The translations under genes and the position numbers were made by a program. This document shows positions 4,397 to 63,266 of a DNA stretch of 64,000 nt, one piece after another. Within the stretch, counting starts at the first letter, position 1; every line of letters starts with the position of its first letter. The stretch is from an uncultured Gammaproteobacteria bacterium (GTDB lineage: Bacteria > Patescibacteriota > Microgenomatia > UBA8517). The DNA lies in NCBI GenBank assembly GCA_964583105.1, contig CAZOUV010000001.1, positions 1,617-65,616 on the forward strand, given 5' to 3'. The notes under the pieces were generated by a model that had not been told where the DNA came from, did not search any database, and worked only from the letters and a program-made list of their open reading frames with translations.

Positions 4397-4948
4397 TTAG
4401 ATAAATGTTACTATTACAGTCCAAATTGACATTGTTGCAAATGCCCATTTCTCCATAAGGGCATTTTTTATTTTATATTTGTTGTGCAGATAAAATAGAC
4501 CCAAATAATAGAAAATGGGGATAAATATTGAAATTAGTTTAAAAGTTAAGTTGCTAATCGATAAACTTATAAGTATTGTTGAAAAAGGGTTTGCTAAAAA
4601 GTAATACTCTGCAAGACATTTATGAATTTTGGGATAGCTTTGTTCTGAAAATATTGCCACTAGGATTGACGCTATTGCCGTACTGACGTATATAAGTATT
4701 CCAATATTCAGGTGGTTTTGCCATAATTTACGCAGTAGATAATATGAAAATAAAAGCTGAAAGAATCCGCCAATTATTAGACCAATATTAATAATAATTT
4801 TGAGTTTTTTGTTATTTGTAGCATGGGTAATTGTCTGTTTTCTACTATTGATACCGGCAGAAATGCTTGGGGTGACCACAAAAACCCAAGCGAAAAACAT
4901 TGCCAATAAACCCGAATATTTCATAAGCACAGTTTTATTGTATAACAA
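4397..4948 (-). CDS. integral membrane protein, hypothetical (about 5 TM)
   Basis: Hydrophobic segments run throughout. No motif recognised. Confidence 0.45.
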   Translation of the reverse strand: MLYNKTVLMKYSGLLAMFFAWVFVVTPSISAGINSRKQTITHATNNKKLKIIINIGLIIGGFFQLLFSYYLLRKLWQNHLNIGILIYVSTAIASILVAIFSEQSYPKIHKCLAEYYFLANPFSTILISLSISNLTFKLISIFIPIFYYLGLFYLHNKYKIKNALMEKWAFATMSIWTVIVTFI

Positions 4949-5015
4949 TGCAAATAGAACATGTTCGGAGGTTAAAGTAGGGAGTGATTGAAGATTTTCG
5001 AACTATTAAATCGCT

Positions 5016-5050
5016 TCAGTTGGTAAAATATACTGAGGACGTTTATCTAG
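5016..5050 (+). repeat. degenerate junction repeat copy (2b)
   Basis: cttcagttggtaaaatatactgaggacgtttatct retains the ctggtaaactatgtcaggaac core in weak form. Confidence 0.3.
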
Positions 5051-5229
5051 CGAGCTTTGGGTATCTACAGATTGACAGTCTGAGGCTAGAAAGGTAGAAT
5101 TACCTTAATGGATAGAAATTGTCCCATTATAAATCAGTCAGCCACCCTTGTTAAAAACAAGGTGAATTGTGCTGGTTTTGTAATGGAAATCAATAAGAAC
5201 TAAACAAAAAATAAATAGATTAAGTAAAA

Positions 5230-5253
5230 CCAGCCACAAAGGGCTGGTTTTTT
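5230..5253 (+). terminator. intrinsic terminator-like hairpin plus T-run, 19 bp upstream of the MFS gene start
   Basis: CCAGCC-acaaag-GGCTGG followed by TTTTTT. Confidence 0.5.
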
Positions 5254-5271
5254 AGTTTTAGAAATAGCATT

Positions 5272-9286: not shown

Positions 9287-9622
9287 ATGGCAACATTTGA
9301 CGATTTCCAAAAGCTAGACATAAGAGTGGGGAAAATAATTGAAGTTGAGGATTTTCCTGAAGCCAAGAAGCCGGCTTATATCTTAACAATTAACCTGGGA
9401 GACGAAATTGGGATTAAAAAGTCATCTGTCCAAATTGTCAGTTTGTACAAGAAGGAAGACTTGGGCGGAAAGTTAGTTCTTTGTGTGGTAAATTTTCCCC
9501 CAAAGCAAATTGGACCCTTCTATTCAGAAGTTTTAACCCTAGGGATTCCAGATAAAGAGGGGAATTGTATATTGATTACTCCAGATATTAAAACTGCTGT
9601 TATTGGCGGGAGACTCTATTAA
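9287..9622 (+). CDS. tRNA-binding domain protein (CsaA/YgjH, EMAP/Trbp111-like OB fold)
   Basis: LDIRVGKIIEVEDFPEAKKPAYILTINLGDE ... KLVLCVVNFPPKQIGPFYSEVLTLG is the typical CsaA architecture. Confidence 0.75.
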   Translation: MATFDDFQKLDIRVGKIIEVEDFPEAKKPAYILTINLGDEIGIKKSSVQIVSLYKKEDLGGKLVLCVVNFPPKQIGPFYSEVLTLGIPDKEGNCILITPDIKTAVIGGRLY

Positions 9623-9627
9623 CCTTC

Positions 9628-9672
9628 GAGGCTAAATTGCAGGGGCTAGTAAACTATGTCAGGAAGTTCTTT
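9628..9672 (+). repeat. array junction repeat copy 7
   Basis: gaggctaaattgcaggggctagtaaactatgtcaggaagttcttt. It starts 6 nt after the stop. Confidence 0.85.
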
Positions 9673-9740
9673 GGGTATTACGAGACCTCTTTTTTCGGAG
9701 TTGAAAACAGAAGCTGCAAAGATTAAAATCCTTTCCAGGG

Positions 9741-10004
9741 GTGATTAAAACAATGGAAACCAACAAACAACCAAAAGACATTCCTTTCAAATTGGCTTTA
9801 GAAAACACAGTTAAAGAGTTTGGTGAAAGTGGAGAAGTTAGACCTGAAACAGCCGCAGAAATGACGCAGCAGATTATAAAACAGATAGGTATTCAGGAGA
9901 CCGACATGCCTGCAGTGGAAGAAGCATTGAAAGAGCACTATTACACCTTGAGATATGAAGAATATCGTAATGCAGCTATGTCAGTATTGGGAGATAAAGG
10001 TTAA
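9741..10004 (+). CDS. hypothetical protein (87 aa)
   Basis: Acidic small ORF with no motif recognised. Confidence 0.35.
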   Translation: MIKTMETNKQPKDIPFKLALENTVKEFGESGEVRPETAAEMTQQIIKQIGIQETDMPAVEEALKEHYYTLRYEEYRNAAMSVLGDKG

Positions 10005-10029
10005 CAAATTAGCTCATTAATAAACCTTT

Positions 10030-10090
10030 GAAGCTAAATTGCAGGGGCTAGTAAACTATATAGGGAACTTCTTCAGGTTTGAATTTCCCC
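10030..10090 (+). repeat. array junction repeat copy 8 (extended form)
   Basis: gaagctaaattgcaggggctagtaaactatatagggaacttcttcaggtttgaatttcccc. Homology to copy 4 continues toward the next start codon. Confidence 0.85.
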
Positions 10091-10112
10091 AAATTAATGT
10101 AGAATATGTTTA

Positions 10113-10853
10113 ATGTGCACTTTAGCAGCCAAGAGAATAAAGAATGGGTGGTTTTTAATAAAAACGAGAGACCCCGTGCCGTGGATGAGAATAGACGATG
10201 AGATAAAGTTGTTTGATTCAAAACAAGACAAATATAAGAAGTTACTTATTCAAAATCCCGACCCCAAGGAAGATGGTTATTATGGGGGAATAAACGAAAA
10301 GGGAGTCGCTTTTACAGCAACATTTGTTCCTGTAGCCGAAAATCAGGTTTCGTATATAAGAAGACCATATGTTAGGCTTATCTTGGATGCTTCCTCCGCA
10401 AAGGATGCGATAGAAATAATTAAGTCTTTTAATCCCAAAATAGGCGGCAATTTTTTTGTTGCTGATAAAAATGAATGCTACGAAGTTGAAGGTTCTCCCG
10501 AAGAATACTCAGTTACGAAAGTCGATAAACCTCAAGCTAAAACAAATCATTTTACGCATTTGCCGTACCAGAATGTACAAATGAAAATGCCTTGGTACAA
10601 AAAGTGGACATTTAACAGGCTAGAAAGGGCTCAAGAATTAATTGATAAAGCAGAAAACCTTGAGGATTTGGAGAACATACTTAAGGATAGGAAGAATGCC
10701 GATTCGAAAACTGCAATTTGTATGATAAAAGGTGAATCGGATTACAATCCTCCAACTGCGTCAGCGTTTGTTTTTGATACTGCGAATAGTACAGCATATT
10801 ATTGTCAAGGCAGTCCACTAGAATCTCCATTTAACAAGTTCAGCGCCCTTTGA
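10113..10853 (+). CDS. Ntn-hydrolase-like protein with an N-terminal Cys nucleophile (C45/C59 acyltransferase/peptidase-like), tentative
   Basis: It begins MCT... (Cys2 after iMet removal), typical of the choloylglycine hydrolase / acyl-CoA:6-APA acyltransferase fold. YYGGINEKGVAFTA and ICMIKGESDYNPPTASAFVFD are also present. Confidence 0.45.
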   Translation: MCTLAAKRIKNGWFLIKTRDPVPWMRIDDEIKLFDSKQDKYKKLLIQNPDPKEDGYYGGINEKGVAFTATFVPVAENQVSYIRRPYVRLILDASSAKDAIEIIKSFNPKIGGNFFVADKNECYEVEGSPEEYSVTKVDKPQAKTNHFTHLPYQNVQMKMPWYKKWTFNRLERAQELIDKAENLEDLENILKDRKNADSKTAICMIKGESDYNPPTASAFVFDTANSTAYYCQGSPLESPFNKFSAL

Positions 10854-10869
10854 AGCTAAATTGCAGGGG
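10852..10869 (+). repeat. truncated junction repeat copy 9, overlapping the stop codon of the previous gene
   Basis: gaagctaaattgcagggg, then it diverges into a tRNA-3'-like sequence. Confidence 0.7.
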
Positions 10870-10954
10870 TGCAGGGAATCGAACCTTATGGGAATCGTTA
10901 ATTTTTTCTATGCCTCGAAAAATGGATTAAATTAAACTACAATAACTTCTACCC

Positions 10955-11563
10955 ATGTTTGATGAAGTCATATTTGATCTTGAAACGAAAAGTTTTTTTG
11001 TTGAGGATGGAAAGTTCGACCCCTCCCGTTTTGGTGTTTCTGTTCTTTCTTTATATCATAGGAAGCTTGATGAAAGTTTTAATGAAATTAAAGGTGAGAT
11101 ATTAAGTTTTTGGGAGAAAGACTTTTCTAATATGTGGAAGATATTTGAAAACGCAAACAGAATAGTAGGTTTTAATTCCCTGTCTTTTGATGTTCCTGCT
11201 CTTTCGCCGTATTCTCCTAAAGGTTTTTCAAAGCTTCCCCATTTTGATATTTTGGATGAGATTAAAAAGGCTACGGGACATAAAACTTCACTTCATAAAA
11301 TTGCAAAAGCTACTTTGGGAGTACAAAAAACAGACACAGGGGAAAACGCAGTTATCTATTGGGAAAAGGGAGACAAAAAAAGCCTAGAATTATTAAAAAA
11401 ATACTGTGAAGATGATGTAAGAATAACCAAAGACATATATGATTATGTTTTAAAAAATAAAATATTGAAGTTTACCGATTATTGGAATAATCCTCGGGAA
11501 ATTGAAATGGATTTTTCCTATAAGTTAGAAAAGGATGATTCTCCCCAAGCTACTTTGTTTTAG
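10955..11563 (+). CDS. DEDD-family 3'-5' exonuclease (DnaQ-like)
   Basis: Exo I FDLET, Exo II IVGFNSLSFDVPAL, Exo III YCEDDVRITKDIYDYV. Confidence 0.7.
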   Translation: MFDEVIFDLETKSFFVEDGKFDPSRFGVSVLSLYHRKLDESFNEIKGEILSFWEKDFSNMWKIFENANRIVGFNSLSFDVPALSPYSPKGFSKLPHFDILDEIKKATGHKTSLHKIAKATLGVQKTDTGENAVIYWEKGDKKSLELLKKYCEDDVRITKDIYDYVLKNKILKFTDYWNNPREIEMDFSYKLEKDDSPQATLF

Positions 11564-18142: not shown

Positions 18143-18216
18143 GTCGCCATCATCTAACGGTTTAGGATATCAGGTTCTCATCCTGAAAATTGAGGGTTCG
18201 AATCCCTCTGGCGACA
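18143..18216 (+). tRNA. tRNA, anticodon read as CTC (Glu); 74 nt without an encoded CCA
   Basis: Acceptor GTCGCCA/TGGCGAC, T-arm GAGGG-TTCGAAT-CCCTC, anticodon stem TCAGG/CCTGA with loop TTCTCAT. The D-arm is slightly atypical. Confidence 0.7.
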
Positions 18217-18223
18217 CAGCCAA

Positions 18224-23057: not shown

Positions 23058-24341
23058 ATGCTTGATATAAATTACATTAGAGAAAATACCGAAAAGGTTA
23101 AAAAAACCACTTCTTCAAAACAAATGGATTCTTTATTGGTTGATGAAGTTTTGAAACTAGACTTAAAAAGAAGAGCACTTCTTAAAGAAACTGAAGAGCT
23201 AAGAGCGGAAAGAAATATTGCCTCAAAAAATAAAGATATTGAAAAAGGTAAGGACATTAAAGTCAGGCTGCAGAGATTGGAAGATGAATATAGGGAGATT
23301 GACAAGAAATATAAAGAAGTTCTTTGGCAAATACCCAATGTGGTTTCCGAAGACACTTTTTTTGGAAAAGATGAAACGGAAAATAAAATTGTTCGGAAAT
23401 GGGGAACGCCACGCAAATTTTCCTTTGAGCCAAAAGACCATCTTAGTTTGGGTGTGAATTTGGGAATAATCGATACCGAAAAAGCATCAAAGGTTTCCGG
23501 TTCAAGATTTGGGTATCTTAAAGGGGATCTTGCCTTGATGCAGTTTGCTTTGATCCAGTTTGGTTTAAGTGTGCTTACGGATGAAAAAATCTTAAAAGAA
23601 ATTGCAGGTAGTATTGATAAAGATTATTCATCCAAAACTTTTATTCCGGTCGTCCCCCCCGTTTTTATCAAACCGGATGTTTTTGAAAAAATGGCCAGGC
23701 TTAATCCCAAGGAGGAACGGTACTATATTCCCACAGACGACATATTTCTTATAGGAAGTGCTGAACACACTCTTGGACCTATGCACATGGATGAAACCTT
23801 AAACGAAAATGATCTGCCAATAAGATATGTAGGCTATTCCACTTCATTTAGAAGAGAGGCCGGTTCCTACGGAAAAGATACCAGGGGAATATTAAGAGTT
23901 CATCAGTTTGATAAATTGGAAATAGAAAGCTTTACCACAAAAGAAAATTCAATTAAAGAACAGGATTTTATAATCGCAATTCAAGAATATTTGATGCAAA
24001 AACTTGAAATTCCGTATCAGGTTGTTTCGATTTGTACTGGAGATATGGGAAATCCCGATTACAGGCAAACGGATATTGAATCGTGGATGCCCGGGGAAGG
24101 AAAATACAGAGAAACACACACATCTGATTTAATGACTGATTATCAGGCCAGAAGATTAAATACAAAAGTTAAAAGATCAAATGCTGAAAATGAGTTTGTT
24201 CATATGAATGATGCAACTGTTTTTGCAATTGGAAGAACAATAATTGCAATAATTGAAAATTATCAAAATGAAGACGGTTCAATAACAATTCCCAAAGTTC
24301 TTCAGAAATGGATGGGTAAGGAGAAAATCACAAAAAAATAA
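23058..24341 (+). CDS. serS: seryl-tRNA synthetase
   Basis: N-terminal coiled-coil arm and class II core motifs (FRRE, GRTIIAIIENYQ). Confidence 0.95.
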   Translation: MLDINYIRENTEKVKKTTSSKQMDSLLVDEVLKLDLKRRALLKETEELRAERNIASKNKDIEKGKDIKVRLQRLEDEYREIDKKYKEVLWQIPNVVSEDTFFGKDETENKIVRKWGTPRKFSFEPKDHLSLGVNLGIIDTEKASKVSGSRFGYLKGDLALMQFALIQFGLSVLTDEKILKEIAGSIDKDYSSKTFIPVVPPVFIKPDVFEKMARLNPKEERYYIPTDDIFLIGSAEHTLGPMHMDETLNENDLPIRYVGYSTSFRREAGSYGKDTRGILRVHQFDKLEIESFTTKENSIKEQDFIIAIQEYLMQKLEIPYQVVSICTGDMGNPDYRQTDIESWMPGEGKYRETHTSDLMTDYQARRLNTKVKRSNAENEFVHMNDATVFAIGRTIIAIIENYQNEDGSITIPKVLQKWMGKEKITKK

Positions 24342-30890: not shown

Positions 30891-31326
30891 AGTTATGTCA
30901 GAATCAAAAATTGAGTCAATTCATACTGAAAAAAAGAAAATAACACCTGAAATATTAGGAATTGAAGCACAGTTTGATCGTATTTACCGTGGCGATTATG
31001 TTTATGGTAGAAATACGCTTCAAGCCAGGGATTATTTGTTAAAACACTTAAACGTTATTGAAAAAGATTTGAAAAGTGATAATGATGGAAGTTGTTCTCT
31101 TCGAATGATGGAAATGATTTTAGATCCGGATTATCCGCATGAACTGGATCCATTTTATCGTCAGGAAGTTGCGAATTTTGTAGATGATCATTTTGAGGAT
31201 ATTGCTAAAAGAATTACACCAAATGGCCTGAATGAAAAAAACATGAATAGTGAAACAGCCAGAGCTCTTCGAGTATTGACTAGTACCCTAAGTGTGCTGA
31301 GGGAAAAAGTGATTTGGTTACAATAA
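30891..31326 (+). CDS. hypothetical protein (145 aa), first gene of a 2-gene insertion after secA
   Basis: ATG immediately after the secA stop. No motif recognised. The codon choice looks different from its neighbours. Confidence 0.4.
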
Positions 31327-32342
31327 AGTATTTAGAGTTGTTTGATAAGAATAAGGAAATTATGATAAAAGAGTTTAAAGAACAACAAATGTTCAGCAGA
31401 CCCTTAGCAACATTTTTGTTTTATGAGTGGTCATTTTACCCCCCAGAAAAGAGTAAAAATACCGATAAACTAGTCAAAGAATTATTGTTTTATGATGGTG
31501 TGAAAGAATCTAAAGTTAGAGGTTTGTTTGATAAACTCCAGGAATATCGGCCAAATCTGATTCGTATCTTAGTTAAGGAAGAGCTTGAAAAGTACATTGA
31601 CGATGACGAAATTAGAGAAGATTGGGTCTCATCGCTTGAGGGTTATCAATATCATCGTTTTCCTAAAAGTCTTAACAGTATCGAGGTTTATAGTATGTTA
31701 GAAACCTGTAGACAGATTGAAGCAGTTGTTCCTAAAGGATGTGAACGTTTGAATAAACTTTTTGGCATAACCCATATTGCTCGATACCCCCATGAGATGT
31801 TACTTGAACAATTAAATGATTGGGATAATTATGATGACAGTCCATATGGAGTGATTGTTAGTGCTTGGGATGATTGGAATAATGCTTTTGCTCATGCTGG
31901 TGGTTCGGATCCTGACTTAAACGGTCATTTTGGGATTAATAGACATCTTTATCTTGATCTAAAGAAATTAGGGTATAAATTTCGAGCTATTGAAGTGAAA
32001 AATAAAGAAGAATTCATAACTCGCCAGCTATTTTTAGGAGAACATTTTGCTCAAGCAGGTAAGTTTCAGTTTCTCCACATTGCTGCTCACGGTTCACCCG
32101 AGGGTATACATTTAGGGAGAGGGGAAAATGATAAGGTTCGAACGGAAGATATTCGGCTATTAATGAAAGATCTTGCTCCACTCTACATTCCTCATATGGA
32201 GACTGTTTTTAAATCTTGCTCAACTGGGACGAAATTAGGTTTCGCCAGCAAATGGGCCAGTCTTGGCTCAGATATTTGTGCGGTTGCCCCAGACCAAAAC
32301 GGTAGTATCAAGAGTATATACCCATTAATGAGGGGGGGGTAA
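31314..32342 (+). CDS. hypothetical protein with a C-terminal caspase/CHAT-like His...Cys dyad (putative peptidase)
   Basis: FLHIAAHGSPEGIHLG (SHG-like His), then about 50 aa later ETVFKSCSTG (SACxTG-like Cys). The spacing fits caspase-fold C14/CHAT proteins. The gene ends in a G8 homopolymer. Confidence 0.4.
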   Translation: MVTIKYLELFDKNKEIMIKEFKEQQMFSRPLATFLFYEWSFYPPEKSKNTDKLVKELLFYDGVKESKVRGLFDKLQEYRPNLIRILVKEELEKYIDDDEIREDWVSSLEGYQYHRFPKSLNSIEVYSMLETCRQIEAVVPKGCERLNKLFGITHIARYPHEMLLEQLNDWDNYDDSPYGVIVSAWDDWNNAFAHAGGSDPDLNGHFGINRHLYLDLKKLGYKFRAIEVKNKEEFITRQLFLGEHFAQAGKFQFLHIAAHGSPEGIHLGRGENDKVRTEDIRLLMKDLAPLYIPHMETVFKSCSTGTKLGFASKWASLGSDICAVAPDQNGSIKSIYPLMRGG

Positions 32343-32453
32343 CCTAGTTGGTTTTAATGTTAAATACTTCAACATTGAAAAAAATATAAATGCAGTTAGG
32401 TTTCCCCAATTTGAGTGATTGTCTAGTAGAAACGAACTTATGTAGCAGTCTAT

Positions 32454-32816
32454 TTGACAAGTGTTTCAAACATTGTCATTATTTCTAATATGGATGAATT
32501 AAAGATTGAAGATATAAATATTGGAACCGGGACAGAAGCCGTAAGCGGAAAGATGGTTACGGTCAATTATTCGGGGACTTTGGAAAACGGAAAGAAATTC
32601 GACAGTTCATATGATAGAGGTATTCCTTTTTCTTTTAATCTCGGTGCATCTGAAGTAATTGCTGGATGGGATCAGGGAGTTGTTGGTATGAAAGTTGGAG
32701 GAAAAAGAAAACTTATGATTCCGGCTTCATTGGGATACGGATCTTCAGGGGCAGGAGAAGTGATTCCTCCGGGAGCTACTTTAATTTTTGAAATAGAACT
32801 TCTTAAGGTAGAATAG
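32454..32816 (+). CDS. FKBP-type peptidyl-prolyl cis-trans isomerase
   Basis: VTVNYSGTLENGKKFDSSYDRGIPFSFNLG...GATLIFEIELLKV is the canonical FKBP domain. Confidence 0.85.
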   Translation: MTSVSNIVIISNMDELKIEDINIGTGTEAVSGKMVTVNYSGTLENGKKFDSSYDRGIPFSFNLGASEVIAGWDQGVVGMKVGGKRKLMIPASLGYGSSGAGEVIPPGATLIFEIELLKVE

Positions 32817-50537: not shown

Positions 50538-51091
50538 AAGACGAAAATTATATTACAAAAACTTCTATTGAAGGTCTTTATATTGTTGAAAGGCCGATAT
50601 TTTCCGACAACCGTGGTTTTTTCAGAGAAGTCTTTAGACTCAACGACCTTGAAAAGGAAACCGGAATAGAATTTAAAATAGTTCAATCTAACCATTCGCG
50701 TTCGGTTCCTGGTGTTATCAGGGCTCTTCATGCGGAAAACTGGAACAAACTGATTTATCCCTTAACGGGGAAAGCTTTTTCGGCAATTGTTGATATAAGG
50801 CCAGATTCCCCGACATTCGGAAAGTACGAAACTTTTGAGTTCGACGGCGCTAAGCCTAAAGCCATCTTTGTATCTAAAGGGCTTGCCAATTCGGTTTGTG
50901 CTCTTGAAGATGAACCTGTGGATTATCTTTATTTTGTTGATGCCTACTACGACGGAAAAGATACTAGAGCTATTGCATGGGACGATCCGGATTTAAACAT
51001 AAAGTGGCCGGTTAAAAATCCCACAATTTCGGAAAGAGACAGAGGTAACCCCAGATTAAGAGATATGTTTCCCGAAAAATTTAATAAGTGA
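50534..51091 (+). CDS. rmlC: dTDP-4-dehydrorhamnose 3,5-epimerase
   Basis: Cupin fold motifs (RGFFRE, LHAENW, YFVDAYYDGKD). Start ATG 50534 overlaps the rmlB stop (ATGA). The track start 50474 is an in-frame upstream extension. Confidence 0.9.
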   Translation: MKDENYITKTSIEGLYIVERPIFSDNRGFFREVFRLNDLEKETGIEFKIVQSNHSRSVPGVIRALHAENWNKLIYPLTGKAFSAIVDIRPDSPTFGKYETFEFDGAKPKAIFVSKGLANSVCALEDEPVDYLYFVDAYYDGKDTRAIAWDDPDLNIKWPVKNPTISERDRGNPRLRDMFPEKFNK

Positions 51092-51125
51092 TATTTGGTG
51101 TTGAAGCTAAAATTTTTATAATTTA

Positions 51126-54003: not shown

Positions 54004-55152
54004 ATGGATAAAGTTGTAATTGTTATGCCCGCCTATAACGAAGCGGAAAATATGGGGCCGATGATCACTGAACTTTTTGAAAATGTTTTCCCTAAAATAA
54101 CCGGGGCCGAAATGAATCTTTTGGTGGTTGATGATTTCTCTCCCGATAAGACGGGGGATATTGTTAAGAAATATCAGGATAAATACAAAAATCTTCATCT
54201 TCTGCAAAAGGAGAAGGAGGGTTTGGGATGGGCATATGTTAAAGGGTTTAGATATGCTATGGAAAAACTCCATGCGGATGCGGTAATGGAAATGGATGCG
54301 GATTTTCAGCATCCTCCCAGATTTGTTATTCCCATGGTTCAGGCATATTTGGACGGAGCGGATTATGTTATCGGATCCCGTTATATTAAGGGAGGTTCTG
54401 TTCCCAAAAATTGGGAGACCTTCAGAAAACTTGTTTCCTATTTTGGGAACATGTTTATTCGTATTGTTCTTGTAAAACCCAAACTTCATGATTTGACAAC
54501 GGGTTTTAGATTAACCAGGGTAAAAGGAGTTCTTGACACAATCGATTTGGAAAATTTGATGGAGCTTAGGAGATTTTCCCATAAAGTTGACTTGTTTTAT
54601 CAAACCACTAAACGGGCAAAAAAGATTGTTGAAGTTCCTTTGGAATTTGCTTCAAGAACCAAAGAAAAATCCAAATTCAATACCAAAGAAACAATATCTA
54701 CTTTTAAGGTAGCAATAATTTTAGGGATTAAGGATAAGATAAGGTTTATTAAATTTGGGATAGTAGGCTTTACTGGTTTTGTTGTTAATTATTTAGGGCT
54801 GGAACTTTTAAAGAGAGTTGGTCTTTCCACATATTTTTCAACTCTTTTGGCAACAGAAGCCGCAATTATTTCTAATTTTATTTTTAACAATATCTGGACG
54901 TTTAAGGATAAAACGATAACTAAAGTAGCAGATATCATTCCTCAATTTTTGAAGTTCAATGTTTCTTCGCTTTTTGCCGTAATTGTTCAGCCCTTAATTG
55001 TTACAGCTGCTACTAAAATATTTACAGACAGTTCAAGTATCCGTTTTTTTGCCTTGGTATTTGCACTGATTGTTATTGTCATTCCATATAATTACATTGT
55101 TTATAACCTCTTTATCTGGAAAACATGGAAAGCCCCCTGGAAGAAGAAATAA
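54004..55152 (+). CDS. GT2 polyprenyl-phosphate sugar synthase (Dpm1/ArnC-like) fused to a C-terminal GtrA-like 4-TM domain
   Basis: VIVMPAYNEAENMG, VVDDFSPDKT, EMDADFQHPP (the DxD/D-rich GT2 motifs), and C-terminal TM helices. Confidence 0.8.
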   Translation: MDKVVIVMPAYNEAENMGPMITELFENVFPKITGAEMNLLVVDDFSPDKTGDIVKKYQDKYKNLHLLQKEKEGLGWAYVKGFRYAMEKLHADAVMEMDADFQHPPRFVIPMVQAYLDGADYVIGSRYIKGGSVPKNWETFRKLVSYFGNMFIRIVLVKPKLHDLTTGFRLTRVKGVLDTIDLENLMELRRFSHKVDLFYQTTKRAKKIVEVPLEFASRTKEKSKFNTKETISTFKVAIILGIKDKIRFIKFGIVGFTGFVVNYLGLELLKRVGLSTYFSTLLATEAAIISNFIFNNIWTFKDKTITKVADIIPQFLKFNVSSLFAVIVQPLIVTAATKIFTDSSSIRFFALVFALIVIVIPYNYIVYNLFIWKTWKAPWKKK

Positions 55153-55158
55153 TACTTC

Positions 55159-56313
55159 CTAAAGAAACGGAGCCCAGTTTGATATCGGCATGGTGTTTTG
55201 GGAAATGTAGGCAAGGGAAAAAAGAAAAATAGGAATTACAATTACCCCAAAAACTATTTTAAATTCTTTGGTGATCAGAGTATCCGAATAGGCTTTAATT
55301 AAAAAAGGAACAACAGGAAGAGCGTATCTTAAAATATCTCTGTGGGCAACAAACAAAATCGAAAGAATAAATATTCCACTAAATAGATAAAGTACATAAT
55401 CCTTTTGTTTAATAAGTTTAATTACTCCAAATATTCCCAAAAGGTAAATAAATATTATTTCTTCGAGCCAAAAAGTTCCTACCCAAGAAGAGGAGTAGTT
55501 AAAAACCGAAAACGGCGGAAACATCAGATGAATATTGTCTCCCGAATGGAAATATGCCCAAAAGTCTTTCAGCTGAATTCCAAAAAGAAGAAAAACCAAA
55601 GAAAGCGACAGCGGAATAAACAGAATTGGCCAGTACTTTTTAATTTCATCAAACCTAAATGCTGCTTTACTCTTAAGAATTAGGGGTTTAACCATCGGTA
55701 TTAAAATTGCCAGAACATATGCTGCAAAAAGAAGGATTCCTGGAGGTTTTGCTAGTTGTGCAAAAGCGCCCCAAAGTCCTGCCGAGAAGTATTTTTTCTT
55801 TTGAAAATAATAGAGGGACGCAATAATTCCTGCAATAAATAAAGGTTCTGCGGAACCTACGGATTTTACAATCAGCCAGCGGGCGGGGAAAACTGAGAAA
55901 ACAAGGGTCAAAAACAGAGAATCTGCTTCAGAATGATACTGTTTTATAAATTTATAGAAAAAGTAGCTGGCGAGAAAAGCTCCTACAGAGGTCGTAAAAA
56001 GCATTGCATACGGAAATCCTAAAACTATGGAAAATATTCTAATGAGGGTAGGAAACAAGGGGAAATGTGCTGCGTAATATTCAAGAGGAAGTGGAAATTG
56101 AAAGTTCCATTTAATAAATTCGGGATTATAGAAGCTTTTGGCAATTGCAAGATAGACGGGTCCGTCATAGTTGGAAACGATTGTTGCCATTCCTGTCTGC
56201 GGAAGCGGAATTCCCCAAAAACTTTTAAGTCTTGCAAAAAAAGGAAGCCAAACCAAAAGCGTGGGAATAAGCGATATTGCAAAAATCAGAATAATCCCTT
56301 GAATCTTTTTCAT
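55159..56313 (-). CDS. polytopic membrane protein, possible GT-C-type glycosyltransferase
   Basis: About 10-12 TM helices. No soluble domain. Confidence 0.4.
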   Translation of the reverse strand: MKKIQGIILIFAISLIPTLLVWLPFFARLKSFWGIPLPQTGMATIVSNYDGPVYLAIAKSFYNPEFIKWNFQFPLPLEYYAAHFPLFPTLIRIFSIVLGFPYAMLFTTSVGAFLASYFFYKFIKQYHSEADSLFLTLVFSVFPARWLIVKSVGSAEPLFIAGIIASLYYFQKKKYFSAGLWGAFAQLAKPPGILLFAAYVLAILIPMVKPLILKSKAAFRFDEIKKYWPILFIPLSLSLVFLLFGIQLKDFWAYFHSGDNIHLMFPPFSVFNYSSSWVGTFWLEEIIFIYLLGIFGVIKLIKQKDYVLYLFSGIFILSILFVAHRDILRYALPVVPFLIKAYSDTLITKEFKIVFGVIVIPIFLFSLAYISQNTMPISNWAPFL

Positions 56314-56343
56314 TAAGTCTATTATATGCTAGACTTTGCCTGT

Positions 56344-57045
56344 ATGGCAAAAATAGGATCTCTTTCGGTTTTTTTACCCGCTTTTAACGAGGAAAAAAAC
56401 ATCGAAAAAACCGTATTATCGGTAAAAAACATTCTTTCCGGGGTTGCTGTAACTTGGGAAATTATTATAGTTAATGACGGCTCCCAAGATAAAACGGGAG
56501 AAATTGCCGAAAATTTGACTAAAAACGACTCAAGGATAAAAGTTATCAGCCATGAAAGTAATCTTGGTTACGGTGCTTCATTAAAAAGCGGCTTTTACAA
56601 TTCAAAATATCCTTGGATTGCATTTATCGATTCCGACGGACAATTTGATTTTTCCGAGATAAGTTCATTTATCGAAAAACAAAAAGAAACCCAGGCGGAC
56701 TTGGTAATAGGCTACTACAAAAAAAGAAAAGTTTCCTTTTTTAAGGTGATTACCAGTAAGGCATGGGAACTTCTGGTTTATCTTCTTTTTGGTTTAAAGG
56801 TAAAGGATATCGATTGCGGTTTTAAACTTGTTTCAAAAAGAGTTATTGAAAAAATTCCCAAACTGGAATCCGAAAGAGGAGCTTTTATCAGCAGCGAATT
56901 TCTGATTAAAGCGAAAAAGACTGGTTTTAAAATCGTTGAAATTCCCGTTACCCATTATCCGGCAACAAGAGTTGGAACAGGTAGAAAATTAAACGTGATT
57001 ATTAAAAGTTTTTCGGATCTGATAAAACTATGGAGAAAATTGTAA
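56344..57045 (+). CDS. GT2 glycosyltransferase (Dpm1/dolichyl-phosphate glucosyltransferase-like)
   Basis: LSVFLPAFNEEKNI, IVNDGSQDKT, FIDSDGQFD. ATG 56344 is preferred to the track start. Confidence 0.8.
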   Translation: MAKIGSLSVFLPAFNEEKNIEKTVLSVKNILSGVAVTWEIIIVNDGSQDKTGEIAENLTKNDSRIKVISHESNLGYGASLKSGFYNSKYPWIAFIDSDGQFDFSEISSFIEKQKETQADLVIGYYKKRKVSFFKVITSKAWELLVYLLFGLKVKDIDCGFKLVSKRVIEKIPKLESERGAFISSEFLIKAKKTGFKIVEIPVTHYPATRVGTGRKLNVIIKSFSDLIKLWRKL

Positions 57046-58553
57046 ATTGGCTAAAGAAAAATAAAACGGAGTTCTCCCTTTTGATAATTATAGTTTTATT
57101 GGGGGGATTTCTGCGTCTTTACAGAATCGGCGAATATATGACATTTTTGGGTGATGAAGGAAGAGACGCAATTGTGGTAAGCAGGCTTTTAAAATACTTC
57201 GACATAATTTTGGTAGGTCCCGGAACTTCAATTGGAAATATGTACCTTGGACCCCTTTACTATTACATGATGGCTCTTCCCCTTTTTCTTGCAAATTTTT
57301 CTCCAGTGGGCCCTGCCGTAATGGTTGCCTTTTTAGGTCTTGCAACGGTTGCACTTATCTGGTGGGTTGGTAGAGAATGGTTCGGAAAAATTGCAGCAAT
57401 TACTGCCGCCCTTTTATATGCAATATCCCCAACCGTAATAATATATTCGCGATCTTCATGGAATCCTAACATAATGCCTTTTTTTGCACTCCTTTCGATT
57501 TATTCTATCTGGAAGGTTTGGAAGGATGAAAAATTCAACTGGCTTATTGTTTTGGGAATTTCTTTTGCTTTTGTTCTTCAATCCCACTATTTGGGCTTAA
57601 TTCTTATTCCGGTACTTATTTTGTTTTGGATTTTGGAGTATCTGAAAATTAAAAATAACAAGCTTCATTTAAAAAAATATTTGACAAAAACATTTTTAGG
57701 TTTTTTGCTGTTTTTTCTTTTGATGAGTCCTTTGCTTATTTTTGATGCGCGTCACGCGTGGAGAAACTTTTCCGCAATGCAAAGTTTTTTTACTTCCAAT
57801 CAGTCCGACCTTTCCATATCTCCCTTAAGTGCGGTTTTTAAAATAGGTCCGATATTTGAAAATGCCACAACAAGACTTCTTTCCGCGAGAAACGAAGCCG
57901 TCGGAAGTATTTTATTTTTATTATTAACATGTTTTGTTATTTGGATAATTGCAAAATGGAAAAAGCTTGATTTAAAAATCCGCCTTCCTTTTATGATGCT
58001 TTTTATCTGGCTGGGTTTTTCCTTTTTGGGTTTGGGGTTTTATAAAAAAGAGATATACGATCACTATCTTGGATTTTTGTTTCCGGCACCTTTTCTTTTA
58101 GCTGCAGCAATGTTGCAGCTTTTGATTAACAATAAAAAAGGTAAAGCTGTAGCTTTTTTAATGTTTTCTTTCTTGGTAATTTTTAATTTATTAAATACTC
58201 CAATTCGTCATTCTCCGAATTTTCAGATGCAAAGAAGTATGCATATTGCAGAGTTTATTAAAGAAAAAAGTGCAGGTGAAAGGTTTAATATTGCTACAAT
58301 TTCCGAAACCGGAAACCGCGACGTTTATCAGTACTTTCTCGAGTTATGGGGAGCAGAAGTGGTCGATACGGATCCTAGTGCTGTTAACTTTACTGTTACG
58401 GATCAGCTATTTGTTGTTTGCGAAATGCCAAAGGAAAAGTGCGATCCGACACATAACCCTTCGGCATGGATTACCGGTTTTGGCTGGACTAAAATAGTAG
58501 ATGAGTGGGAAGTTTGGGGAACAAATGTTTATAAACTGGGTCATGCCAATTGA
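57030..58553 (+). CDS. GT-C membrane glycosyltransferase, ArnT/PMT (GT39/GT83)-like, paralog 1
   Basis: About 11 TM. First-loop acidic motif FLGDEGRDA. C-terminal soluble domain. Confidence 0.65.
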   Translation: MEKIVNWLKKNKTEFSLLIIIVLLGGFLRLYRIGEYMTFLGDEGRDAIVVSRLLKYFDIILVGPGTSIGNMYLGPLYYYMMALPLFLANFSPVGPAVMVAFLGLATVALIWWVGREWFGKIAAITAALLYAISPTVIIYSRSSWNPNIMPFFALLSIYSIWKVWKDEKFNWLIVLGISFAFVLQSHYLGLILIPVLILFWILEYLKIKNNKLHLKKYLTKTFLGFLLFFLLMSPLLIFDARHAWRNFSAMQSFFTSNQSDLSISPLSAVFKIGPIFENATTRLLSARNEAVGSILFLLLTCFVIWIIAKWKKLDLKIRLPFMMLFIWLGFSFLGLGFYKKEIYDHYLGFLFPAPFLLAAAMLQLLINNKKGKAVAFLMFSFLVIFNLLNTPIRHSPNFQMQRSMHIAEFIKEKSAGERFNIATISETGNRDVYQYFLELWGAEVVDTDPSAVNFTVTDQLFVVCEMPKEKCDPTHNPSAWITGFGWTKIVDEWEVWGTNVYKLGHAN

Positions 58554-59551
58554 ATATGAATTATCAAGAATCACTGAAACTACTTGAGCTGATTAAAAAA
58601 TCAAAAAGGATTTTGATTAATTGCCATTACAAGTCAGATCCCGATGGAGTGGGGAGTGCATTGGCAATTTACCTTGCTTTAAAAAAGATCGGGGATTTTG
58701 AAATTTCACTTATTTCTCCAAGTGTTGCCCCCAAAAATTTAAATTATCTTAATGGCTTTTCGGATATAAAAAAAGTTGATTACAAAAGTTTTGATTTCTC
58801 AAAATATGACCTTTGGATTATTCCGGATGCAGCCAACTTCTGGCAGATTTCGGGAATACAAGATTTTAAGAGGCCGGAAATATCCATGATTAATTTTGAT
58901 CATCATGAGACTAATGAAGTAGATATTCAAAATAAAATTATCGAAAAAGGGCTTAGTTCAGTTTGCGAACTTTTATATAAGGTTTTTGAAGATTGGCAGA
59001 TTGATTTTGATAAAAGCATTGCCGAAGCTCTTCTTTCCGGAATCATCGGAGATACCGGAGTTTTCAGGTTTACCAATGTAACCACAAGGACTTTGGATAT
59101 TGCAAGAAAATTGATGGATTTGGGAGCTGATAAAAACATGATTGTTTCGAAAACCTACGGATCGATACCTTTTGACGAAATGAAGTTTTGGGGCAAAGTA
59201 ATAGAGTCAATGAAAAAGGAAGATGAATTTAATTTTGTCTGGGTTGCAATTAATTTGGAAGAGTACGAGAAGTATGGCAGACCTACCGATGCCAAAAGCT
59301 CTGCGGCATCGAATTTTGCAGGAATTGTAGATGAGACCGATTTTGGAATAATTATGGTTGAGGAAAAGAAGGATTTTGTAACCTGCAGTTTCAGATCACG
59401 TGGGGACTTTGATATTTCCCCGATTGCTCAGGAATTGGGAGGTGGAGGACATAAAGAAGCAGCAGGAGCAAGAATAGTTGGACTTTCCTTTGAGAATGCC
59501 GTAGAAAAAGTTTTGGATGTTGCCAAAAAACATGCTAAAAAAACTTCTTAA
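58550..59551 (+). CDS. DHH/DHHA1 phosphoesterase (NrnA-like)
   Basis: DHH motif (INFDHHETN) and DHHA1 GGGGHKEAAGA. Confidence 0.8.
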   Translation: MNMNYQESLKLLELIKKSKRILINCHYKSDPDGVGSALAIYLALKKIGDFEISLISPSVAPKNLNYLNGFSDIKKVDYKSFDFSKYDLWIIPDAANFWQISGIQDFKRPEISMINFDHHETNEVDIQNKIIEKGLSSVCELLYKVFEDWQIDFDKSIAEALLSGIIGDTGVFRFTNVTTRTLDIARKLMDLGADKNMIVSKTYGSIPFDEMKFWGKVIESMKKEDEFNFVWVAINLEEYEKYGRPTDAKSSAASNFAGIVDETDFGIIMVEEKKDFVTCSFRSRGDFDISPIAQELGGGGHKEAAGARIVGLSFENAVEKVLDVAKKHAKKTS

Positions 59552-61040
59552 GGAAATTTCGGATCATAAACTGACATATCTTTCCCTTTTTATCATTCTT
59601 GGCTTGGGACTTTTTTTAAGAGTTTATAATATTGAAAGATTATTGGGTTTTCATTTCGATCAAGGAAGAGACGCATTAATCATCTGGGATCTTTGGCATT
59701 CGGGAGATGTTCCGTTTATAGGACCCACTACAGGAATTGCCGGAATTTTCAGAGGACCTTTTTATTATTATCTGATCGCACCTTTTTATTTACTGGGTAG
59801 AGGAAATCCTGTTTGGCCGTCTGTCTTTCTTTCTCTGACAACCGTTATTGCGTCTTTGTTGATGTATTATTTGGGCTATAAAATTCAAAATAGGATTACC
59901 GGATTAATTGCCGCTCTTTTATCTTCTCTATCCTTTAACATAGTTGCCGCTTCACGCTGGCTTTCAAATCCTACACCAATGCTTTTTTTAAGTGTTCTAT
60001 TTGTCTGGATGCTGATTTTGATTGTTGAGAAAAAAGTTTGGGCATGGATTCCCGCAATTTTCATTGCCTCAATTTCATTGTTTCATTTCGGTTCAGCGGG
60101 GGAAGTGTTTTATTTTCCTGCACTTTTAATAATATTATTTTGGCAGAGAAAAAAATTACCAAACAAAAAAATTATAATATTATCCATATTATCGTTTTTA
60201 ATCAGTGTTTTGCCGCTAATTGCATTCGACATCAAAAATAAAGGAATTCTCTCAGGAAATATAGGTAAGTTTTTGATCACAGATAAAAGTTTTTCACTTC
60301 CTTCTTGGGCAATGGTTTTTGAAAAAATATACTTTTACTACAATACTTTTACCAACAAGATATTTAACGCAAGGTATTACTTGGAAAAAACAGTATTAAG
60401 TACCGTCCTGATTTTATTTGTTTATCATTTTAAGAATCTTTTTAAGAAAAACGGCGTAAAGGTTTTGGCTATTCTTTTATCGTCGGTTTGTCTGGGATTG
60501 ATATTTTTTCAGGGCAATTTTGGAAATATCTATGACTATTATTTGACAGGATACTATCTTCCCTTTCTCCTTCTTTTTTCTATAGTTTTGGGGTATCTTG
60601 TAAGGTTTAAATTGGGAACTATCTTTGTTGTATATTTTATTTATTTATTTATGACCAATAATTTCGATGTTTTGCATTTTAAATACTGGGACAAATCCCA
60701 AGGACCGAATAGTATCGGATTTATCAATCAAAAAGAAGTTGTCAGGTGGATATATCAAGACGCCGGAGAGAACATCTTTAATGTAGATGTTTATGTTCCT
60801 CCCGTAATTTCCTACTCCTATGATTATTTGCTGAAATGGTTGCCAACAACGGACGAATACAAAAGCTATGATGGTAAAAAGGTTGATGAAAACGTTTCCC
60901 TTCTATATACGCTTTACGAATCCGATTCCGATCATCAGGAAAGACTGGATAGCTGGCTTTTAAGACAGAAAAAAATAGGAAAGGTTATTGACGAATTTAA
61001 ATCCGGTTCGATTACCGTCCAAAGAAGATTGAGGTTATGA
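59517..61040 (+). CDS. GT-C membrane glycosyltransferase, ArnT/PMT-like, paralog 2
   Basis: Same topology as paralog 1. Motif FHFDQGRDA. Confidence 0.65.
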   Translation: MLPKNMLKKLLKEISDHKLTYLSLFIILGLGLFLRVYNIERLLGFHFDQGRDALIIWDLWHSGDVPFIGPTTGIAGIFRGPFYYYLIAPFYLLGRGNPVWPSVFLSLTTVIASLLMYYLGYKIQNRITGLIAALLSSLSFNIVAASRWLSNPTPMLFLSVLFVWMLILIVEKKVWAWIPAIFIASISLFHFGSAGEVFYFPALLIILFWQRKKLPNKKIIILSILSFLISVLPLIAFDIKNKGILSGNIGKFLITDKSFSLPSWAMVFEKIYFYYNTFTNKIFNARYYLEKTVLSTVLILFVYHFKNLFKKNGVKVLAILLSSVCLGLIFFQGNFGNIYDYYLTGYYLPFLLLFSIVLGYLVRFKLGTIFVVYFIYLFMTNNFDVLHFKYWDKSQGPNSIGFINQKEVVRWIYQDAGENIFNVDVYVPPVISYSYDYLLKWLPTTDEYKSYDGKKVDENVSLLYTLYESDSDHQERLDSWLLRQKKIGKVIDEFKSGSITVQRRLRL

Positions 61041-62521: not shown

Positions 62522-62522
62522 T

Positions 62523-63266
62523 ATGCAAAAATTATCAATTGTAATTCCTGCCTACAATGAAGAAAGAACCATTAAAAACGGTTCCCTACAGGATGTTTGG
62601 AATTATCTAAATAAACAAAACTACAATTGGGAAATAATTGTTGTGGATGATGCATCCACCGATAGAACCCTATCTCTTTCTAAAGATTTTGCTAAAAGTC
62701 ACAAGGGTATTACTGTTCTTCCGGAACCACATAGAGGAAAAGGGGGAACGGTTATTGCGGGAATGCTAAAGGCTTCGGGAGATATCGTGATTTTTGCGGA
62801 TATGGATCAGGCAACCCCGATTAATCAGGTAGAAAAGTTACTGCCCAAATTTAACCAGGGCTTTGATATTGTCATAGGATCAAGGTCGGGAAGAGAAGGA
62901 GCACCTTTAATAAGAAAGGCCATGGCTTATGGTTTTTCCCTTCTTAGAACAATAGTTCTTAGGCTTCCGTATAGAGATACACAGTGCGGATTCAAAGCAT
63001 TTAAAAAAGATGCCGCAAGAAGTATTTTTGACAAGATGAGGGTTGTTAATGAAAAAATCCTGGAGGGAGGAGCTTCTGTTTCGGCGGGATTTGATTTGGA
63101 GGTTTTATATATTGCAAGAAAATTGGGATATAAAGTTGCGGAAGTAGAAGTTGAGTGGCACCACAAGCAAACTGAAAGAATAAACCCCATCAAAGATTCC
63201 TATGAAGGTTTAAGAGATCTTTTAAAAGTAAGGTTTAACGCTTTATTTGGAAAGTACGGTGTATAA
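62523..63266 (+). CDS. GT2 glycosyltransferase (Dpm1-like polyprenyl-phosphate sugar synthase)
   Basis: LSIVIPAYNEERTI, VVDDASTDRT, FADMDQATP. ATG 62523 is preferred. Confidence 0.8.
   Translation: MQKLSIVIPAYNEERTIKNGSLQDVWNYLNKQNYNWEIIVVDDASTDRTLSLSKDFAKSHKGITVLPEPHRGKGGTVIAGMLKASGDIVIFADMDQATPINQVEKLLPKFNQGFDIVIGSRSGREGAPLIRKAMAYGFSLLRTIVLRLPYRDTQCGFKAFKKDAARSIFDKMRVVNEKILEGGASVSAGFDLEVLYIARKLGYKVAEVEVEWHHKQTERINPIKDSYEGLRDLLKVRFNALFGKYGV

Follow-up and report, generated by a model that had tools for sequence, protein, structure and literature searches.

A single gene of an undescribed caspase-fold protease family, probably broken by recent frameshifts, downstream of secA in a Candidate Phyla Radiation bacterium

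What is encoded between secA and the FKBP gene in a 64-kb stretch of contig CAZOUV010000001.1 (the whole of which is here called the window, and the coordinates of which are used throughout)? An earlier note, made from the sequence alone, had described at this place an insertion of two overlapping genes without a recognisable housekeeping role, the second of which specifies a protein with a caspase-like His/Cys pair and ends in a run of eight guanines (G8), followed by about 110 bp of non-coding DNA. Two overlapping open reading frames (ORFs) are indeed found on the + strand, with small errors in the coordinates that had been given for them. ORF 1 extends from 30865 (TTG) or 30895 (ATG) to 31326, and ORF 2 from 31314 (TTG) or 31362 (ATG) to 32342. 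The likely start of ORF 1 is the ATG at 30895, which is located 5 nt past the secA stop codon and gives a product of 143 aa, and the start of ORF 2 annotated by the NCBI is the ATG at 31362, which gives a product of 326 aa (P0001). The best overall explanation, which we consider probable, is that both ORFs belong to one gene of an undescribed caspase-fold protease family of the Candidate Phyla Radiation (CPR), and that this gene has been broken by recent frameshifts of biological origin.

The case for a single gene is made by homology. A word-index homology search returned only three relatives; the nearest of these, P0002 (481 aa), extends further at either end. When P0002 is aligned with the locus by tblastn, its residues 25-116 fall in the frame of gene 1, residues 150-452 in the frame of gene 2, and residues 452-461 in a third piece past the G8 run; the three pieces are colinear and are found in frames 1, 0 and 1 (coordinate mod 3). 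A reconstruction with A6 at the first junction and G7 at the second yields a protein of 507 aa, which can be aligned over its whole length with P0002, P0005, P0006 (the gene product of locus L006) and P0007. At the first junction there is an A5 run at 31304-31308, and A6 would give the single frame ...LREKSDLVTIKYLELF...; relatives carry TLxxL-G(N/F/P)(A/S)D..(E/A)KYL in one frame, and in the window TLSVL is read in frame 1 but SDLVTIKYLELF in frame 0. A profile built from the first 150 residues of intact close relatives, searched against the 2981 six-frame fragments of the window, matches the gene 1 frame with an E value of 2.9e-25. Similarly, a profile of the C-terminal tails of close relatives ranks 32332-32415 first among the same fragments (E 9.8e-4), and fragment 3 is also the top match of the broad family profile (E 0.8). 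The displaced tail, NLVGFNVKYFNIEKNINAVRFPQFE, agrees with the pattern GL[VIL]GF.V.Y....RYP.L of the relatives and, in a 150-sequence alignment, all of the other family representatives (149/149) continue for at least 14 residues (median 26) past the point at which the window's product stops. The intact orthologues of related genomes have 481-494 aa, and the closest relatives, L009 (51% identity) and P0005, are unsplit.

Judged by this homology, 30895-32418 is a single gene read in frames 1, 0 and 1, and the tblastn pieces, the reconstruction alignment and the profile matches all make fragments of what had been taken for two genes. As the displaced C-terminus is homologous to the tails of relatives, the supposed 110 bp of non-coding DNA is mostly a coding remnant, with an out-of-frame homologous C-terminus at 32341-32415 and a stop codon at 32416-18. 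Gene 1 was also considered as an antitoxin, an immunity protein or a partner of gene 2, and was rejected in these roles since it is the N-terminus of the same protein. The features of the locus are collected in Table 1, together with the gene order around family members elsewhere.

Table 1. Features of the split gene (window coordinates) and, in the rows that open with a locus handle, the surroundings of other family genes, where [X] marks the family gene
Feature	Coordinates	Strand	Remarks
Fragment 1 ('gene 1'), 143 aa, frame 1	30895..31326	+	Helical N-terminus of the ancestral protein
Site of the first frameshift (from frame 1 into frame 0, as by loss of 1 nt)	31300..31311	+	Sequence AGGGAAAAAGTG
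Frame-0 codons 5' of the annotated ATG, VTIKYLELFDKNKEI	31314..31361	+	Similarity to the intact L006 orthologue SEKYLEFLEDNKDAI retained
Fragment 2 ('gene 2', P0001), 326 aa, frame 0	31362..32342	+	Remaining helical domain and caspase-fold domain
Conserved C-terminal domain, ~220 aa (P0001 residues ~105-326)	31674..32339	+	Domain profile match E 2.8e-54; predicted clan CD-like alpha/beta domain, here minus its last two strands
Asp171 codon, just after strand 1	31872..31874	+	Kept in 149/150 sequences
Glu211 codon, on strand 2	31992..31994	+	Invariant
His243-Gly244 codons, putative catalytic His directly after strand 3	32088..32093	+	150/150 sequences
Ser285-Cys286-Ser287-Thr288-Gly289 codons, putative catalytic Cys directly after strand 4	32214..32228	+	Cys in 150/150
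G8 tract and site of the second frameshift (from frame 0 into frame 1, as by gain of 1 nt)	32332..32339	+	G7 would read ...PLMRGGNLVGFNVKY...
Fragment 3, 25 codons in frame 1 (NLVGFNVKYFNIEKNINAVRFPQFE) and TGA stop at 32416-18	32341..32418	+	Displaced C-terminus with the last two beta strands
L021	3712-6470		S5-L15-SecY-[X]-191 aa-Map-IF1-S13
L024	654-5731		SecY-Adk-Cmk-Map-[X]-IF1-S13-S11-S4-RpoA
L019			Family gene after L19 (rplS)
L025			DnaA-[X]-ComEC
L023			PBP2-[513 aa]-[X]-DprA-TopA
L008			Family gene near def and fmt
L022			Family gene near pilMNO

As the sequence stands, the locus could yield a 143-aa helical fragment and a 326-aa fragment that harbors the full dyad but lacks the last two conserved strands. 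The latter ends at a premature TAA (32340-42) directly after the G8 run. The lost strands correspond to residues 454-461 and 467-470 of P0002, and in the AlphaFold model of the truncated product the strand that precedes them is also gone, such that activity may have been either lost or deregulated. A Shine-Dalgarno-like site, AAGGAA, is located 4 nt 5' of the ATG at 31362. The codons between the overlapping start and this ATG (31314-31361) are undecayed, and the first shift is therefore recent or the stretch is still translated.

What kind of protein does the gene encode? Both of the motifs that had been picked out earlier, FLHIAAHGS and FKSCSTG, are present, and each putative catalytic residue is preceded by a hydrophobic block (FLHIAAHG and ETVFKSCSTG). 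The order of His and Cys is as had been described, but the two residues are 43 apart (His243 to Cys286, the codon of the latter being 32217-19) rather than about 50. Within the 150 aligned sequences Glu211, His243, Gly244 and Cys286 are invariant, and Asp171, Arg141, Tyr142, Gly163, Thr288 and Gly289 are nearly so. AlphaFold2, run with this alignment, models the intact orthologue P0002 with a pLDDT of 90.5 and a pTM of 0.88, and the 326-aa product of the window with a pLDDT of 91.0. In the P0002 model, residues 1-295 are all helical, and the C-terminal domain is composed, in order, of strand 1, a helix, strand 2 with the invariant Glu, a helix, strand 3, the His-Gly pair, a helix, strand 4, the Cys, a helix, strand 5 and three further strands. 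The strand at residues 363-369 of P0002 is followed by H371-G372 and that at 403-411 by C414; in the P0001 model, strands 235-241 and 275-284 are followed by H243 and C286, respectively. This order of strand, His, strand and Cys is the one that defines the caspase-hemoglobinase fold, so that the predicted structures have the arrangement on which clan CD is structurally based.

Comparison of the models with the Protein Data Bank (PDB) by Foldseek agrees with this assignment, clan CD enzymes being the top matches. The P0002 model matches caspase-11, -3, -8, -7, -6, -9 and -4, Tce1, butelase (legumain-like) and Csx29, with E values of 1e-3 to 3e-2, probabilities near 1 and target TM-scores of 0.33-0.52. 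The window product is matched best by Tce1 (9qpe_G, E 9.4e-4, target TM 0.54) and then by a SAVED-CHAT protein (8tl0_D, E 1.2e-3), and also by caspases including CED-3 and, at lower probability, by Rossmann-like folds; the Foldseek probabilities for caspases 3, 6, 7, 8, 9 and 11 and for CED-3 are 0.9-1.0. A fold search of BFVD gave a weak match to an ascovirus caspase. The invariant His-Gly and Cys (150/150), the models and the Foldseek matches support a caspase-fold (clan CD-like) His/Cys protease, as the earlier note had proposed. It had named two findings that would overturn its reading, namely the lack of such a fold and the lack of conservation of the two residues, and neither was made: a caspase-like fold is predicted, and the His and Cys are conserved. 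The intact protein would be a cytoplasmic site-specific endopeptidase, in which the helical domain would bind or gate the substrate; from the acidic Asp171 and Glu211, a preference for Arg/Lys at P1 can be predicted.

To which family does such a protein belong? When a profile of the 220 C-terminal residues was run in a full HMMER search, 2396 representatives (clusters at 50% identity) were matched at E<=1e-3, and 738 of them reached E<=1e-30. The typical family protein has around 520 aa with the conserved domain at its C-terminus. The members are named at source only as 'hypothetical protein', and the hosts that are named are Patescibacteria group bacterium and Candidatus Berkelbacteria bacterium. 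A word-index search with the full-length alignment, which was swamped by low-complexity N-termini, found 2 proteins only. The family domain profile revealed no second copy of the protease domain in the window, and no relatives of the family were found in a scan of viral contigs. In scans of both products with Pfam, NCBIfam and PADLOC no family was matched; the best PADLOC result for the window proteins was PDC-M04B (13.6 bits, E 0.013), covering 27 residues only. Likewise, none of 10 typical members matched an NCBIfam or PADLOC model.

The sole Pfam family matched by more than one of 85 members is DUF4347, which was matched by 10/85 at E<=0.1 with a best E value of 1.8e-5. P0015 scores 20.2 bits against DUF4347 (PF14252), under the gathering cut-off of 24.6 bits, and the window protein has no match to it, which points to a distant sister family rather than to membership. 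Peptidase_C14 is absent at E<=0.1 from the 85 members and from the window protein, a CHAT (PF12770) profile matches neither the window protein nor the scanned members, and the Peptidase_C80 HMM has no match. A search of PDB sequences with a single protein gave a chance match to botulinum toxin only, and with the family profile it gave only designed helical repeats, which match the N-terminal domain and leave the catalytic domain unmatched. From profiles and models together, the family appears as a distinct one of the clan CD kind, with DUF4347 as its nearest neighbor and with no place in C14 or CHAT by profile.

How the family compares with characterized systems is best considered from Tce1 (PA0256). 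This DUF4347 protein was described in 2026 as a TcdB-CPD-like putative cysteine protease, CPD being the cysteine protease domain (PMC13323088; also PMC8262886), and counts among the effectors of the Pseudomonas aeruginosa H3 type VI secretion system (H3-T6SS), in which it is loaded on Hcp3. It is the best structural match of the window product, with an rmsd of 4.5 A over 170 columns; in it, too, the His comes before the Cys on a central sheet with helices on its flanks, and an N-terminal extension is present (PMC13323088). However, the sequence identity is only about 11%, and Tce1 is the secreted T6SS cargo of a proteobacterium, whereas the members of the present family come from CPR bacteria, bear a long N-domain of helical repeats and are encoded in housekeeping operons. 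The caspases, metacaspases and orthocaspases (C14, clan CD) share the class of fold, with His-Gly after hydrophobic strand 3 and Cys after hydrophobic strand 4, and dozens of caspase chains are among the top Foldseek matches. The spacing here, 43 residues, compares with 42 in caspase-3 (His121 to Cys163), and SCSTG resembles the metacaspase motif D-S-C-H-S-G. Around the catalytic His, IIGGHGxxxSIxFG of the family aligns locally, although not significantly, with LLSHGEEGIIFG of caspase-3, which includes the SHG motif of the latter. In contrast to caspases, the family has SCSTG in place of a QACxG motif, has a helical domain added at the N-terminus and, at the C-terminus, a conserved extension of three strands, and carries Glu211 and Asp171, for which no direct caspase counterpart was identified; the TM-scores with caspases reach only 0.32-0.42.

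The TPR-CHAT protein Csx29 of type III-E CRISPR likewise has helical repeats followed by a caspase-like protease, and it is among the Foldseek matches (8eey_B, 7y8t_B), with a global TM-score of only 0.13-0.19; the SAVED-CHAT protein that is match number 2 (8tl0_D) comes from a CBASS-like system. Unlike these CHAT defence systems, the family is without CRISPR, SAVED or cyclic-nucleotide partner genes, and its context is one of housekeeping genes and not of a defence island. With the C80 CPDs there is a similarity of spacing, in that Asp171, His243 and Cys286 are placed much as are D587, H653 and C698 of TcdB, and the beta strands added at the C-terminus might be the counterpart of the CPD beta-flap. 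However, C80 CPDs (TcdA/TcdB, MARTX) are absent from the top 50 Foldseek matches and are internal domains of giant secreted toxins.

Has the gene been inserted after secA? Orthologues are found at the same place in L001, L006 and L017, which speaks against the insertion that had been proposed. On the 138-kb groundwater contig L001, which is the closest long syntenic one, a methyltransferase gene is followed by secA, the 481-aa orthologue, three small genes and FKBP; in L006, secA is followed by one small opposite-strand ORF and then the 482-aa orthologue; in L017 the orthologue is directly after secA and is split; and in L009 the orthologue is 600 bp from FKBP. The gene is thus a syntenic resident of the lineage, and the variable part is the DNA between the gene and FKBP. 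In L001 this interval (9478-11130) is occupied by a gene with a Bro-N domain (264 aa) and by a pair of small ORFs of 176 and 97-107 aa, of which one has an N-terminus that resembles a signal peptide; all of these are absent from the window, and the interval is therefore a variable spot. Beyond the synteny of close relatives, no neighbor is conserved across 13 loci. On the longer contigs, family genes are in the same strand as their neighbors, with short gaps, inside core operons (Table 1), and those of L021 and L024 are found in the spc/alpha ribosomal operon, after secY or after map and before infA. That family genes recur beside secA, secY and map hints at a link with protein export or (N-terminal) maturation. 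The codon choice of the two ORFs had been described as rich in CGT, CTT and AGT. Enrichment is seen for CGT and AGT (CGT/CGA make up 42% vs 9% of Arg codons, and AGT 48% vs 15% of Ser codons) but not for CTT; GC and GC3 are normal, and the codon score is at z -0.3 for gene 1 and z -2.3 for gene 2.

In what state is the gene, and how might it have come to be so? The G8 tract is the longest G/C run in the window and directly abuts the stop codon, as had been pointed out, although at 32332-32339 and not 32330-32337. Between 0.15 and 1.2 such runs are expected by chance, so that its presence is by itself unremarkable. The attention that the earlier note paid to the tract was well placed in spirit, in that it marks the exact point at which the frame departs from that of all relatives. 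In orthologues the equivalent RPGG is encoded in mixed codons with no homopolymer, so that the G-run is new in this lineage and no prfB-like +1 shift is shared with the orthologues. The window protein deviates at 14/51 conserved sites, compared with 17-20 in intact close relatives, and no in-frame stops are found in the gene. As the out-of-frame pieces are undecayed, the events would be recent slipped-strand mutations (or reversible, or artefactual), and the gene, should it be a pseudogene, would have become so only very recently.

Disruption of the gene is not confined to the window. In L017 (4603-5999; the same sequence is found in L018 at 826-2216), ORFs of 137 aa and 332 aa overlap by 16 nt with a change from frame 1 to frame 0; here there is a deletion of around 20 codons, and the C-terminus is intact. 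That this split is the same event as that of the window was considered and rejected, as the junctions differ. In L013 (1129-2795) the gene is split just before the protease domain into 287 aa and 247 aa in different frames; A6 and A7 runs are present in the 60-nt gap between these ORFs. Finally, a distant family member in L016 (Ga0209515_10006023) goes out of frame exactly at a G7 run (4700-4706, within the stretch 4697-4710), where G8 would restore the conserved D-x-N-G-A-F motif (as DPGGAF); the two halves of its domain match in different frames with E values of 1e-21 and 2e-37. Across 251 kb (the window and the loci) there are five G/C runs of at least 7 nt, of which three are in intact genes and the two that are off-frame are both within the protease family. 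Around 4/21 lineages have a disrupted copy, and in two of these the break is at a poly-G tract. Such a pattern is consistent with a gene that is dispensable or costly and that slippage has inactivated again and again; phase variation by G-tracts is at this stage a tentative idea, and the numbers are too small for proof of the one or the other.

The course of events that we consider probable can be put together as follows. The intact gene would encode an N-terminal all-helical repeat domain and a C-terminal cysteine peptidase domain of the caspase-hemoglobinase fold, and would be co-transcribed with secA here and with secY-map-ribosomal genes elsewhere. A loss of 1 nt in the A-run (31304-08) would have split off the first 143 aa, and a gain of 1 nt in the G-run (G7 to G8, 32332-39) would end the catalytic fragment 25 codons early, with the loss of two conserved strands. 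The gene would thereby be in an OFF or crippled state in this genome, and the G-tract would be the more mutable, and possibly reversible, site of the two. Several observations weigh against parts of this account. The Foldseek E values are only around 1e-3 with target TM-scores of 0.35-0.54, no Pfam clan CD model is matched at threshold, and an hhalign comparison of the family profile with human caspase-3 is not significant, with a probability of 1.2%. The truncated product is still modelled at high confidence. The splits in L017/L018 and L013 suggest that an N-terminal split is tolerable, so that 'crippled' may overstate the effect of the first shift, and an assembly or consensus error at both homopolymers is possible.

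If such errors were responsible, the organism would carry A6 and G7 and an intact gene product of around 507 aa. Both shifts do occur in homopolymers, the displaced segments are without decay, and the off-frame poly-G of L016 could equally be a systematic poly-G artefact. We nevertheless regard this as unlikely. The window is 94% coding, its other overlapping gene pairs are complete separate genes, and no other split or broken gene was detected in it. The 90 A/T runs of at least 7 nt and the C7 run in serS are all in frame in the window, as are the G7/C7 runs in the secA of L006 and in L025. Taken together, these findings give no sign of an error-prone assembly; furthermore, a mistake in a mere five-A run is unlikely, and the chance that two errors would fall within one 1.5-kb part of the 64 kb is about 2%. 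The C7 run (23654-23660) lies inside a 427-aa ORF (23058-24341), the L001 counterpart of which is the seryl-tRNA synthetase gene, and serves as an internal control of homopolymer accuracy. The same G-tracts may instead be read as the switch of a phase-variable contingency gene, in which G7 (ON, with the full C-terminus) and G8 (OFF or truncated) would alternate and so switch either the whole protease or only the C-terminal strands that would regulate it. The classic switch in Neisseria and Campylobacter is a poly-G tract within an ORF (PMC5084427, PMC8355987). As in the contingency loci of Neisseria, Campylobacter, Helicobacter and Mycobacterium, an intragenic tract sets the frame, the change is exactly at G8 and a single base (G7) restores the conserved tail, and the second off-frame poly-G of the 251 kb, in L016, is at another position of a family gene and would likewise be mended by one base. 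However, the G8 tract is at the extreme 3' end and truncates the product rather than abolishing it, the tract is not shared by orthologues, and G/C runs of at least 7 nt are missing from 18/20 other family genes. No tract-length polymorphism was observed, and none of five hypothetical alleles (with G7, with A6 or with combinations) was found by exact look-up in a collection that holds one contig of the organism. In addition, the accompanying A5 frameshift is too short for ready switching, G8 is not unexpected by chance, and a housekeeping operon is unlike the surface or restriction-modification genes of typical contingency loci. Among the items that a literature search brought up, none was a paper that pairs Patescibacteria with phase variation or homopolymeric tracts. 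Overall, we are doubtful that the tract is a switch.

The split itself might also be an evolved architecture, with the 143-aa and the catalytic fragments both made and working, and the second of them translated from its own AAGGAA-ATG at 31362 or coupled to the first via the 13-nt overlap. This plausible ribosome-binding site, the intact conserved sites of gene 2, the similar layout of L017/L018 after secA (137 and 332 aa, with the same frame change and a complete C-terminus) and the split in L013 (287 and 247 aa) are all compatible with functional fission. Against this, the window junction is located around 20-25 codons upstream of that in L017 and, with the deletion in the latter, the splits are therefore independent events; L017 and L018 may also share reads. 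Moreover, the closest relatives (L009, P0005) are unsplit, the division falls inside the helical domain and not at a domain boundary, and the C-terminal truncation is left unexplained, all of which makes fission improbable in our view. Programmed ribosomal frameshifting would require both a +1 shift at GGG-UAA-C with a Shine-Dalgarno-like GAGG, as in prfB, and a -1 slip of tRNA-Lys on GAA-AAA-G. The sequence AUG-AGG-GGG-GGG-UAA-C does offer a slippery codon, a stop and a C, with GAGG 3 nt upstream of the last GGG, the shifted product would be that of the G7 allele, and there is a resemblance to the E. coli prfB site (AGGGGG-UAU-CUU-UGA-C). Yet the orthologues are in frame without a G-run or stop, the first site has no canonical X-XXY-YYZ heptamer, the Shine-Dalgarno-like element is merely the G-run itself, and neither site is followed by a stimulatory RNA structure (there is no excess of structure 3' of the shift sites, with a folding z of 0.47 at the first and -0.11 at the second); such a mechanism is very improbable. 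Hardly more credence can be given to a horizontally inserted two-gene anti-phage or abortive-infection module with a caspase/CHAT-like effector, the function that had originally been suggested. In its favor are the caspase/CHAT-like fold, the structural matches to SAVED-CHAT and TPR-CHAT, the union of helical repeats with a caspase-like domain, which recalls TPR-CHAT, the mildly atypical codon use of gene 2 (z -2.3) and the Bro-N domain gene that adjoins the L001 orthologue. However, this is a single gene, syntenic after secA in at least four related genomes (L001, L006 and L017 among them) and with GC and GC3 typical of the genome; no neighbor or partner is conserved across the 13 loci, and there is no CHAT, SAVED, CRISPR or other sensor partner; PADLOC finds nothing in the window proteins or the 10 typical members; the viral contigs have no relatives; and members are found next to secA, rplS and dnaA or inside secY-adk-map-infA-rpsM and similar core operons.

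The broken protease gene is of interest beyond its own locus. Bacterial caspase-fold proteases are now studied mainly as defence or toxin effectors, such as the CHAT proteases, Tce1 and the toxin CPDs, and here is a family with thousands of clusters, and without a Pfam, NCBIfam or PADLOC model, that is wired into conserved housekeeping operons. As these operons are not defence islands, they point to a different use of the fold, and perhaps a core one, in organisms whose proteomes are minimal. The locus also offers a lesson in annotation, since one gene has been mis-split into two 'hypothetical proteins' and a spacer. The recurrent disruption raises the question of whether CPR bacteria are using, or suffering from, homopolymer slippage at this gene. 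It is conceivable, although we think it rather improbable, that a CPR-wide caspase-fold protease has a core role in the maturation or quality control of nascent or exported proteins and is toggled by poly-G slippage. If so, it would be the first contingency-type switch to be described in CPR bacteria, of which the window (G8, OFF) and L016 (G7, OFF) would be two independent examples.

A number of further observations were made around the gene and elsewhere in the window. The remainder of the spacer contains a sigma-70-like promoter for the FKBP gene, TTGACA-17-CATTAT with TG, at 32454-32482. The FKBP gene itself (32454-32816, likely ATG 32491) has a GC3 of 0.51, compared with 0.30 +/- 0.045 for 51 window genes (z +4.6), and a codon score of z -4.7; its product is without the N-terminal hydrophobic segment of around 50 aa that is found in the L001 orthologue (168 aa). 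The largest stretches without an ORF of at least 60 aa are 50538-51125 (588 bp) and 4949-5271 (323 bp), in which no Rfam family reaches its gathering score, and a tRNA-Glu(CTC) at 18143-18217 is the sole RNA gene detected in the 64 kb. Finally, a block of glycosyltransferase genes at 54004-63266, which includes GT2 genes at 56326-57045 and 62493-63266 and PMT_2-type membrane mannosyltransferase-like genes at 57030-58553 and 59517-61040, is probably a cell-envelope glycosylation cluster.

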